64,000 nucleotides of DNA, taken from positions 32,001 to 96,000 of the forward strand of contig JAXGJB010000002.1 in the NCBI GenBank assembly GCA_040770465.1, in the 5' to 3' direction. Positions 37,740-39,528 of this stretch are shown in pieces. Source of the stretch: Methanothrix sp. (GTDB taxonomy: Archaea; Halobacteriota; Methanosarcinia; Methanotrichales; Methanotrichaceae). A program made the position numbers and the translations under genes. Positions within the stretch are counted from its first letter, which is position 1. The number at the start of each line of letters is the position of its first letter. The notes under the pieces are model-generated. The model was not told the DNA's origin. It did not search any database and was given only the letters and a program-made list of their open reading frames with translations.

Positions 37740-37820
37740 TTCGATAATCTTTTTGAATAAACAAAAATAAGCTATTTATATGAGAATGAATTTGTAACCG
37801 GAAATATAGATGTGATAATT

Positions 37821-38210
37821 ATGAGACAATTTTCGGTTAAAGTTCTGGACGACGGCGACCGGGAGTTCGTGGAGATTCTGCGAGACCTCGGCATCCCCCG
37901 AAACGTCGCCGCCATGATAACGTACCTCGCCAACGTCGGGGAGGCCACCTCTCGTGAGATCGAGATCGGGTCGAACCTCAGGCAGCCGGAGGTCAGCATC
38001 GCCATGAGATCCCTTAGAGAGAACGGCTGGGTGGAGGAGAGGGAGATGAAGAAGGACGGAAAGGGGAGGCCCATGAAGGTCTACAGGCTCGCTGTAACCC
38101 TTGAGGAGATCATAAGGCATTTTGAGGATGAGAAGAGGAGCGAGTCGGCGAGGGTGATGGAAAATATAGGTCGGCTGAAGGATCTGAGCGGAAAGCTCGC
38201 CAACGTCTGA
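37821..38210 (+). CDS. Methanogen wHTH transcriptional regulator (ArsR/TrmB-like)
   Basis: SREIEIGSNLRQPEVSIAM, GKGRPMKVYRL. Confidence 0.85.
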   Translation: MRQFSVKVLDDGDREFVEILRDLGIPRNVAAMITYLANVGEATSREIEIGSNLRQPEVSIAMRSLRENGWVEEREMKKDGKGRPMKVYRLAVTLEEIIRHFEDEKRSESARVMENIGRLKDLSGKLANV

Positions 38211-38219
38211 GGCGATCCT

Positions 38220-38432
38220 TCATCCGGAGGAGACGATCCGGACGATCTCCAGGTCGCCGGGTTCCACCACATCGTCCGAGGGAACGGGGCGCCCCTCCCA
38301 GAGCGCCACCACTGTCTCGGGTTTCAATCCCAGAAGCGAGACGAGTTCCTCATAGGTGACGCCCCTCTCAAAATCGATCACCCGTTCGGATACGCGGCCA
38401 TCAGCACGGATTTTAACCTCGAGAGCGGTCAC
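38220..38432 (-). CDS. MoaD/ThiS/SAMP-like ubiquitin-fold protein, C-terminus -VSSG
   Basis: 70 aa, TYEELVSLLGLKPETVVA..GRPVP.D..V..GDLEIVRIVSSG beta-grasp pattern. Confidence 0.85.
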   Translation of the reverse strand: MTALEVKIRADGRVSERVIDFERGVTYEELVSLLGLKPETVVALWEGRPVPSDDVVEPGDLEIVRIVSSG

Positions 38433-38560
38433 TCTTCTTCCTCACCGCCTGCGCCCACGAGATCCTCGAGGTTCTCTTCGATCAGCTTCTTCTCCAGGTT
38501 CTCAGTCTTCTTGTCGCCTTTCCTCTCAACGTCCCTTTTCTTGAACTTAGGCACAAGCAT
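38429..38560 (-). CDS. 41-43 aa charged peptide (ML)VPKFKKRDVERKGDKKTENLEKKLIEENLEDLVGAGGEEEE (not in ORF track)
   Basis: GGGGTGA RBS suits GTG at 38554; native AAG/GAG codon usage; TGA overlaps GTG of the ubiquitin-like gene. Confidence 0.75.
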   Translation of the reverse strand: MLVPKFKKRDVERKGDKKTENLEKKLIEENLEDLVGAGGEEEE

Positions 38561-38588
38561 CACCCCATCTTAATCCGATCTGCGGCGG

Positions 38589-38601
38589 TATTAACCTTTC
38601 G
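38589..38601 (-). promoter_or_regulatory. BRE/TATA-like element for the peptide-Ubl pair
   Basis: Minus strand CGAAAGGTTAATA about 30 nt upstream of the peptide start. Confidence 0.6.
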
Positions 38602-39528
38602 TTAGCCTGACCTTCGGCCTATGCAGGCCCACTGATCGTAGATCCCCAGGTCGTCGGGGCTCGCGACCACCTCTGCAGCCCATCCCTCAGACCTCAGGGC
38701 GGCGGCCACCATCCGGGCCTCTCTTTCGGTGTAGGTGGTGTAGATCACCATCTCTCCTGCGAGCTCCGACGAGCTGACCAGGATCTCCTTCCAGAGGGGC
38801 CAGTTGACGTCGTCGATCAGCCCCACCATGAACCCCACCACCGCCTCGAAGTGCTTAGGACGAAAGAACCGGTCCAGGAGCCGGGCGTCCAGGACCATCG
38901 ACCTTTCGGGTTCGAGGTGGCCATACTTCAACCCATTGCATACCTCACAGCTATCGATCTCACAGGTCCATGGACGAACGCCGAGCCTCCTCAGGGCCTG
39001 GGTGGCCATGCCGCTACCGCAGCATATCTCCAGCACCTCGCCCCCAGAGGGGATGAGGGGTCTGAGGAACCTCTCCAGGGTTCCCGTCCTCTCGGGGACG
39101 AAGAGGGGCGGGCTTGATACAGGGCAATTCTCGCAGAATAGCTCGTCTTTTAGGGCGACGGCCAGCCACTCCACTACTCCCTCAAAAAATCTCCTCTCAT
39201 CCACCACGACGGTCTTCGATCTCGGGATCTCGGGAAGCGCTTCCAGGGGGCTTGATTCGGAGTAGCGGTCCGTCAAAAGGAGCCAGACCTCGCCGGGCTC
39301 TGTGAGCTTCAGGGCGATCCCCAGACGGGATCTGCGTCCCGCATCTGACCCTGTATCATCCTCCTCTCCCTCCTCCTCGCCATCCAGAACTTCGATGGCC
39401 TCCACAACCACCGGTTCCGACCCGAGGATCTCTGAGGTGACCGGGAGGTCGATCAGATCGGCCAGGGACTCTTCGGCCAGGAATATCTCTTCACCGTCGT
39501 CGATCTTCAAGATCTTGTGAAGCAACAC
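38602..39528 (-). CDS. Class I SAM-dependent methyltransferase-like protein
   Basis: Motif I VLEICCGSGMAT, CEID, VLDAR; N-terminal domain with acidic loop and CxxC (FCENC). Confidence 0.75.
   Translation of the reverse strand: MLLHKILKIDDGEEIFLAEESLADLIDLPVTSEILGSEPVVVEAIEVLDGEEEGEEDDTGSDAGRRSRLGIALKLTEPGEVWLLLTDRYSESSPLEALPEIPRSKTVVVDERRFFEGVVEWLAVALKDELFCENCPVSSPPLFVPERTGTLERFLRPLIPSGGEVLEICCGSGMATQALRRLGVRPWTCEIDSCEVCNGLKYGHLEPERSMVLDARLLDRFFRPKHFEAVVGFMVGLIDDVNWPLWKEILVSSSELAGEMVIYTTYTEREARMVAAALRSEGWAAEVVASPDDLGIYDQWACIGRRSG

Follow-up and report, generated by a model that had tools for sequence, protein, structure and literature searches.

Two short, overlapping genes on the minus strand of a contig from the archaeon Methanothrix sp. 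(GenBank assembly GCA_040770465.1, contig JAXGJB010000002.1, positions 32,001 to 96,000) are the subject of this analysis; one encodes a small protein of 43 amino acids (aa), here called the peptide, and the other a ubiquitin-like protein (Ubl) of 70 aa. The whole 64,000-nucleotide (nt) stretch is referred to as the window and all positions are numbered within it. Read along the minus strand, the window sequence gives the order 308-aa open reading frame (ORF), 41-nt spacer, 43-aa ORF and 70-aa Ubl ORF. The peptide gene occupies 38429..38560 with its stop codon counted, running from an ATG at 38560 to a TGA at 38431-38429 and encoding MLVPKFKKRDVERKGDKKTENLEKKLIEENLEDLVGAGGEEEE, which is extended to 44 aa if a GTG at 38563 is used, and GGGGTGA stands immediately 5' of the ATG. 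The Ubl gene occupies 38220..38432 and begins with a GTG (38432-38430) that overlaps the peptide stop codon as GTGA; its product ends IVSSG. A first-pass annotation, made from the sequence alone, had reported the small ORF at 38429-38560, the GTGA overlap, the GGGGTGA, a promoter-like element and a CxxC in the protein encoded upstream, all of which are correct on the window, and had proposed that the peptide, the Ubl and a methyltransferase encoded by the 308-aa ORF form a tagging or precursor module.

The promoter-like element, CGAAAGGTTAATA (38589..38601, minus strand), is recognised by its consensus and its conservation as similar to a B recognition element (BRE) followed by a TATA box, and overlaps the 3' end of the methyltransferase gene. 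It is identical or near-identical, and at the same distance, in all loci of the genus, and near-identical forms (cgaaaggattaata and cgaaaaggttaata) are found in a second family of the class. We infer that CGAAAGGTTAATA is the promoter of a peptide–Ubl transcription unit, the mRNA of which is probably near-leaderless, because the TATA end of the element lies merely 28 nt upstream of the peptide ATG. In four metatranscriptome runs from one study, contigs spanning 37991, 38036, 38058 or 38134 to 38457 contain the Ubl gene together with 29 nt from the 3' end of the peptide ORF, all four ending at 38457, and other contigs span parts of the methyltransferase gene. The remainder of the peptide ORF is in no contig of that study, and such contigs cannot show strand, starts or absence.

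Conservation and expression of the small protein

When the Ubl was used to search 41 related genomes, 32 were matched and 30 loci were retrieved, and by tblastn a homologous, open peptide frame adjoins the Ubl in all 30, one of these loci being truncated where its contig stops. Across the 14 loci of the genus, identity to the window is 84-98% for the peptide, compared with 53-77% for the Ubl and 65-76% for the methyltransferase. The pooled pairwise ratio of nonsynonymous to synonymous differences (pN/pS), calculated from 12 loci of the genus, is 0.416 for the Ubl and 0.148 for the peptide, with a value of 0.122 for peptide codons 2-34. Purifying selection on the peptide is strongest at residues 2-34, away from the junction with the Ubl. 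Ten residues (K8, R9, E12, R13, K14, G15, K18, L22, K25 and L26) are invariant in 19 diverse orthologs (alignment A1), giving a protein built of a basic N-terminal half with an invariant core and an acidic, variable tail. The small ORF is a genuine, strongly constrained gene for a cytoplasmic protein, and the first-pass annotation was right to treat it as a gene. It belongs to no named family that we could find: the peptide has zero matches to Pfam and NCBIfam at E <= 1, its profile gives chance-level matches only against PDB sequences (E 0.83 and 1.3), a search of the ESM Atlas returned nothing usable, and its copies in databases are unnamed or labelled 'hypothetical protein'.

The ortholog in Methanosarcina mazei, which differs at two residues from the L029 peptide of alignment A1, is already on record as an expressed small ORF (sORF) named sORF_14 or sORF_014 (MM_RS19375; PMC11456600). 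Its stop codon overlaps the start of a 70-aa MoaD/ThiS-family gene, MM_0137, as in the window, and in the ribosome profiling (Ribo-seq) curation of that study it is described as 'in operon' (with MM_0137) and 'upregulated in N-' (PMC11456600, supplement files 8-10). It was confirmed there by Western blot and by both top-down and bottom-up mass spectrometry (MS), and in the top-down data the dominant proteoform is the full-length protein minus its initiator methionine, unmodified and at its theoretical mass, with 728 + 938 proteoform–spectrum matches (PrSMs). Minor forms retain the methionine (34 + 110 PrSMs) or are N-acetylated (54 PrSMs), and there are ragged truncations with 2-12 PrSMs each, including a C-terminal form ending SGG with 2 (PMC11456600). 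The M. mazei ortholog is an abundant, stable and intact protein. The same study lists lower-confidence homologs in Methanosarcinaceae, and its available text, unlike the present account, assigns the protein no function, does not connect it with SAMP2 and reports neither fusions nor a spread through the phylum (PMC11456600). A literature search for a function of the peptide returned nothing beyond that study, the main text of PMC12704099 being silent on it.

Beyond these relatives, the A1 profile has a match in at least 104 of 301 sampled genomes of the phylum, a figure that is a lower bound because divergent forms escape the profile. Some families have the peptide in every sampled genome (8/8, 37/37, 15/15, 4/4, 4/4 and 4/4) and another in 23/46, while by profile it is nearly or wholly absent from others (0/24, 0/17, 1/38 and 1/19). 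At 7/7 loci in two profile-negative genera, a divergent small ORF (MR[T/R]FDW..KG..) stands directly before the Ubl; such an ORF is not visible at 17 inspected Ubl loci of six other families, with one more locus cut by a contig end. A search of 1.84 billion representative proteins with the peptide profile gave 35 clusters at E <= 0.001. Linkage extends beyond the class, since at 18 of 20 distant loci the next gene after the peptide is the Ubl. The linkage of peptide and Ubl that had been proposed from the window is largely kept in relatives. The peptides of one family (L068, L070, L072, L074, L075, L102 and L119) are longer and have in common a second C-terminal motif, approximately I(K/H)E(V/I)(A/S)KE(V/L)L(P/A)EE, and one genome (G241, locus L080) has a second, stand-alone paralog of the peptide beside an Hsp20 gene, without a Ubl.

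A coupled SAMP2-type Ubl and the internal GG

The 70-aa protein scores 55.3 bits against the Pfam SAMP2 model PF21965 (cut-off 27), with a weak match to ThiS, and is the single PF21965 match in its genome. A profile of 19 Ubl orthologs matches the SAMP2 chains 4hrs (E 1.1e-11), 2l32 and, from P. furiosus, 5lda in the PDB, and also the TtuB chains 5ztb and 5gha. To judge from these matches, the protein is a SAMP2/TtuB-type beta-grasp ubiquitin-like protein. It resembles SAMP2 (Haloferax volcanii HVO_0202), TtuB and Urm1 in matching the family model and solved chains and in an invariant C-terminal glycine (19/19 aligned sequences), and differs from them in falling under the NCBIfam SAMP2 equivalog cut-off (44.3 vs 70), in lacking a C-terminal di-glycine, since it ends SSG, and in being preceded by a conserved and translationally coupled mini-protein gene. 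Beside 67 distinct peptides the Ubl tails are SGG (20), TGG (4), LGG (1) and AGG (1), or else SSG (15), SQG (10), SAG (5) and SMG (1), with one bearing an extension and 9 peptides without a Ubl. The non-GG tail is lineage-specific, GG being the ending in most relatives and SSG one of several xG tails in the family. The first-pass identification of a MoaD/ThiS/SAMP-fold partner ending SSG holds, and the lineage-specificity of the tail counts against the tag or precursor reading. Ubl relatives in other families (L105, L113 and L091-L094) have the tails SVG, SRG and PWG, and two carry C-terminal extensions that would require processing (L091, and L077 with ...SGGRLEVHTKIKN).

The two genes are joined in a constant manner. 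A 4-nt NTGA overlap between the peptide stop and a GTG or TTG start of the Ubl is found at 23 of 29 loci, the other six having small gaps or overlaps, and 20 of 26 distinct loci have GGTGA at a distance of exactly 9 nt 5' of that start. In the window this motif occupies 38442..38446 on the minus strand, where it is part of the peptide codons GGT GAG and is separated by 9 nt from the GTG. The 16S rRNA 3' end, taken from a genome of the same genus as the assembly itself is without 16S rRNA, is ...GGATCACCTCCT; GGTGA is complementary to it and is thus a Shine–Dalgarno site.

In the frame of the peptide GGTGA reads GGT-GAR, that is Gly-Glu, and this bears upon an internal GG in the acidic tail to which the first-pass annotation had given weight. 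Of 65 distinct unfused peptides, 34 have a GG after residue 28 and 31 do not, the variants at this position being VTEE, GEED, EGE and DGE, and GGTGA is retained also where the peptide has EGE or DGE rather than GGE. Because the nucleotide motif stays when the amino acids change, the internal GG is largely a footprint of the ribosome-binding site of the Ubl gene. By the test that the first-pass annotation had itself set, free variation of this motif among orthologs, the GG counts against its reading. More generally, an upstream ORF can show a 'GG motif' simply because the ribosome-binding site of the following gene lies within it, and such motifs should be read with caution.

Peptide and Ubl also occur as a single protein. 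Two of the three genomes of one genus (G045 and G100) encode the two as one in-frame product, with the peptide core joined to the Ubl N-terminus, and the same type of fusion is seen in two metagenome proteins, P0058 and P0060 (99 and 125 aa). The fused Ubls end GG, and the shortest fusion is without the acidic tail. A word-index search with P0060 returned P0060 and P0058 only, and no fusion of the peptide to any other domain was found among the 35 representative clusters at E <= 0.001. The fusions suggest that the peptide acts at the N-terminal side of the Ubl and leaves its C-terminal glycine free. One further protein, P0046 (97 aa), consists of the peptide core and an unrelated C-terminal stretch, perhaps because the gene call is chimeric or frameshifted.

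Pathway genes and other neighbours

The genome (94.85% complete) contains one ThiF E1 (PF00899, 255 bits), one Prok-JAB (JAMM) protein (PF14464, 40.7 bits) and an NcsA-like PP-loop ATPase (PF01171, 47.8 bits), a further likeness to the SAMP2, TtuB and Urm1 systems; on these domain matches a ThiF E1, a JAMM protease and an NcsA-type thiolase are present as candidate partners of the Ubl. The sole ThiF E1 (contig C18; L081 1-3681) lies in a YcaO-TfuA-ThiS-like-ThiF-DUF1890-DUF1894-ThiS/MoaD-like-MoaE cluster, both Ubls of which end GG. Elsewhere, the gene directly 3' of the pair encodes a class-V aminotransferase of the cysteine desulfurase type (L066:2923-4116 and L067:975-2153), a Prok-JAB protease (L070:2945-3397) or a MoaA-type radical SAM enzyme (L065:1379-2263), and the presence of such sulfur and Ubl genes directly after the pair fits a Ubl that acts as a sulfur carrier or modifier.

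In the window the Ubl gene is convergent with a gene on the plus strand (37812..38210) for a 132-aa winged-helix regulator of the MreA family (NCBIfam NF053756, 159.7 bits, cut-off 100). The peptide, the Ubl and this convergent regulator form a conserved block. A similar winged helix-turn-helix gene is convergent to the Ubl in a second family (L020:1091-1468 and L028:1085-1468) and also at L021:1660-2058. A tRNA-Ser(CGA) gene is divergent from, and just upstream of, the pair or a lone Ubl in three distant lineages (L064:2675-2764, L069:2720-2803 and L090:1758-1842). The upstream tRNA was considered as a thiolation substrate and rejected, as ARAGORN called tRNA-Ser(CGA), which is not an s2U34 tRNA, in three of nine scanned loci; it made no call at the six other loci with tRNA-like upstream translations.

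The 308-aa protein is encoded at 38602..39528 on the minus strand, ending 41 nt upstream of the peptide gene. It scores 20.9 bits, below the cut-off, against Pfam Methyltransf_23, and has a glycine-rich motif I (LEICCGSG). Its AlphaFold2 (AF2) model has a mean predicted local distance difference test (pLDDT) score of 71.5, the best Foldseek match to the model is Bud23 (E 4.5e-08, template modelling (TM) score 0.63 on target), and the further top matches are class I methyltransferases of RNA or small molecules. The modelled structure is that of a class I S-adenosylmethionine (SAM)-dependent methyltransferase fold, and its N-terminal part of ~140 residues matches nothing. Two CxxC pairs (C132/C135 and C194/C197) are invariant in 9/9 orthologs, and these four cysteines suggest a metal site. 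Of the 30 loci, 18 have the methyltransferase gene beside the pair, every one of them from a single family, the Methanotrichaceae, and in other genera the gene is far from the pair. The methyltransferase family occurs in 145/301 genomes of the phylum in a pattern unlike that of the peptide, being found in 0/46 genomes of a family where the peptide is common and in 24/24 and 38/38 of families where the peptide was not found. We exclude the methyltransferase from the module, because its spread differs, its linkage is limited to a family and the pair has what appears to be its own promoter. Of the three-gene module originally proposed, the peptide–Ubl pair holds, and linkage to the methyltransferase is confined to part of the Methanotrichaceae.

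A proposed role for the small protein

The reading that we favour, at slightly better than an even chance, is that the peptide is an uncharacterised accessory small protein of a SAMP2-type sulfur-carrier/modifier pathway, co-made with the Ubl and presumably binding it. The two genes form an operon, the peptide gene first and the Ubl second, which would have its own BRE/TATA promoter, and the Ubl is translated by coupling, through the NTGA overlap and the GGTGA placed 9 nt upstream inside the peptide tail codons; being translationally coupled, the two proteins should be made together. The conserved stretch of the peptide, residues ~1-34, is probably an amphipathic helix that carries the basic patch KRxxERKGxKK. 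This stretch would assist the Ubl pathway as an accessory module, and the most likely site at which it would bind the Ubl is close to the Ubl N-terminus, where the two are joined in the fusions. The C-terminal glycine of the Ubl would be left free for a ThiF-type E1, for NcsA-type tRNA thiolation and/or for conjugation reversed by the JAMM protease. The acidic 'GG' tail is a variable linker in which Gly-Glu is dictated by the downstream ribosome-binding site.

Several observations weigh against this reading, in which binding to the Ubl and the biochemical role are inferred. The higher conservation of the peptide, together with its invariant basic patch, points to a further, better conserved partner. 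The Ubl is also the more widespread of the two, its profile matching 266 of 301 genomes vs at least 104 for the peptide, and it works without the peptide in many lineages, as no such ORF is seen at the 17 inspected loci. Conversely, the Ubl profile has zero matches in 4/4 genomes of ~1 Mb (63-94% complete) from one peptide-bearing genus, and in three species of another (L044, L050 and L052) an intact peptide gene is followed (about 1626-1950, peptide orientation) by what reads as a decayed Ubl interrupted by stops (for example ...LNILD.YQETLLI...), the fourth species of that genus (L059) having an intact Ubl that ends LGG. As the peptide is kept without a detectable or intact Ubl in these two lineages, it cannot be strictly dependent on this Ubl. 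The AF2 model of fusion P0060, made from a 4-row alignment (A4), has a pLDDT of 55.9, a low confidence at which contacts are unreadable, and places a helix at residues 5-30 before beta-grasp-like strands. Most of the M. mazei overexpression strains showed no growth phenotype, the sORF_14 strain itself being unconfirmed among them in the available part of that report (PMC11456600). A complex prediction for the peptide (A1) with the Ubl (A2) scored 0.00 and counts neither way. MAFFT alignments of the fusions with separate peptides and Ubls (A3 and A6) were discarded as they placed the Ubl N-termini onto the peptide helix. In the four ~1-Mb genomes (L076, L095, L097 and L098) the lone peptide gene is convergent to KaiC/small-GTPase and Roadblock/LC7 genes.

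The same observations lend themselves to a different explanation, possible but considerably less probable, in which the peptide is an independent small protein that has no contact with the Ubl and binds, for example, nucleic acid, the ribosome or an enzyme; it would merely share the operon, or would act on another component of the pathway such as the E1 or NcsA. In favour of this, the peptide outlasts the Ubl in the two lineages just described, and the ~1-Mb genomes retain the PP-loop ATPase (4/4) and ThiF (2/4); the stand-alone second copy at L080, the conservation above that of the Ubl and the invariance of the basic patch all agree with it. It accounts less readily for adjacency and stop/start overlap being maintained across several families, or for the existence of natural fusions to the Ubl and, leaving aside the odd case of P0046, to no other domain in the 35 clusters. 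A more specific form of the reading that we favour, which we consider rather unlikely as it stands, makes the peptide a dedicated and hitherto unrecognised subunit of the Ubl system, an 'adaptor helix' carried at the N-terminus of SAMP2 and able to come apart from it, being fused in some lineages and separate in most. By its basic patch it would direct sulfur transfer or conjugation by the Ubl to a conserved target, for instance NcsA and tRNA or the E1; if this were true, the survival of the peptide after loss of the Ubl would mean that the peptide also regulates that target alone.

Other explanations fare worse. The ORF might be mainly a regulatory upstream ORF that delivers ribosomes to a weak GTG or TTG start, the peptide being secondary; the overlap at 23/29 loci, the embedded ribosome-binding site and the joint response of the pair to nitrogen limitation in M. 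mazei (PMC11456600, as curated in its supplement) are in keeping with this, yet it is improbable given that amino-acid selection is strongest at residues 2-34 (pN/pS 0.122), far from the junction, that ten residues are invariant across the class, that M. mazei contains the protein in abundant and stable form, and that the peptide persists both without the Ubl and as a fusion. That the ORF is no gene at all and only a chance open frame over the 5' leader of the Ubl has next to nothing in its favour beyond its short length and its omission from some annotations, set against conservation, selection, phylum-wide spread and detection of the ortholog as a protein. The first-pass annotation had seen in the peptide a Pup-like tag or the precursor of a ribosomally synthesised and post-translationally modified peptide (RiPP), cut at the GG, conjugated or exported and perhaps modified by the methyltransferase. 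In favour of this, the peptide is small, probably largely helical or disordered, and has an acidic C-terminal part with GG, as in Pup, or an acidic helix and then GG, as in double-glycine RiPP and bacteriocin leaders; the ending ...EENLEDLVGAGGE superficially resembles both, and the minor truncations of the M. mazei protein include the one ending SGG (2 PrSMs). This reading is nonetheless very improbable. The GG is neither terminal nor conserved, being missing in 31/65 distinct peptides and explained by the ribosome-binding site, and no Pfam or NCBIfam model, that of Pup included, matches the peptide at E <= 1. There are 0 matches in the 94.85%-complete genome to the Pup ligase family PF03136 (PafA/Dop), for which a control in Corynebacterium was positive, and 0 to the C39 peptidase family PF03412. 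Only 4 residues follow the GG in the window peptide, leaving a double-glycine leader almost no core, and a free peptide C-terminus cannot be required in the fusions because it is there joined to the Ubl. The dominant M. mazei proteoform is free, intact and at its theoretical mass, with no modification detected on it, and the methyltransferase is differently spread and unlinked in most lineages. Membership of the Pup family and of the double-glycine RiPP leaders was rejected on these grounds.

Returning to the accessory protein of a SAMP2-type pathway, a partial parallel is offered by eukaryotes, in which ubiquitin is fused to the small basic ribosomal proteins eL40 and eS31. There too a Ubl and a small basic protein come from one gene or operon at a fixed ratio and in fused and split forms, whereas here the order is reversed, with the peptide N-terminal and the Ubl C-terminus free, the peptide is without a zinc ribbon and there is no sign of a ribosomal role. 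Our literature searches found no description of a mini-protein gene coupled to SAMP2, TtuB or Urm1, and the accessible text of a 2010 comparative analysis of archaeal Ubls mentions no such partner (PMC2948915). As far as these searches show, the phylum-wide tie to a SAMP2-type Ubl, the fusions, the finding that the peptide is better conserved than the Ubl and the tracing of its 'GG' to a ribosome-binding site are new.

Archaeal proteins of the SAMP2, TtuB and Urm1 type connect the transfer of sulfur to tRNA with ubiquitin-like tagging of proteins, and have been used to reason on the origin of ubiquitin signalling. Methanosarcina, which is genetically tractable and in which the abundance of the protein is already established, allows a direct test. 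If the reading that we favour is true, a small protein under stronger conservation than the Ubl, co-translated with it in most methanogens of the phylum and in some cases fused to it, would be a missing component of this pathway.

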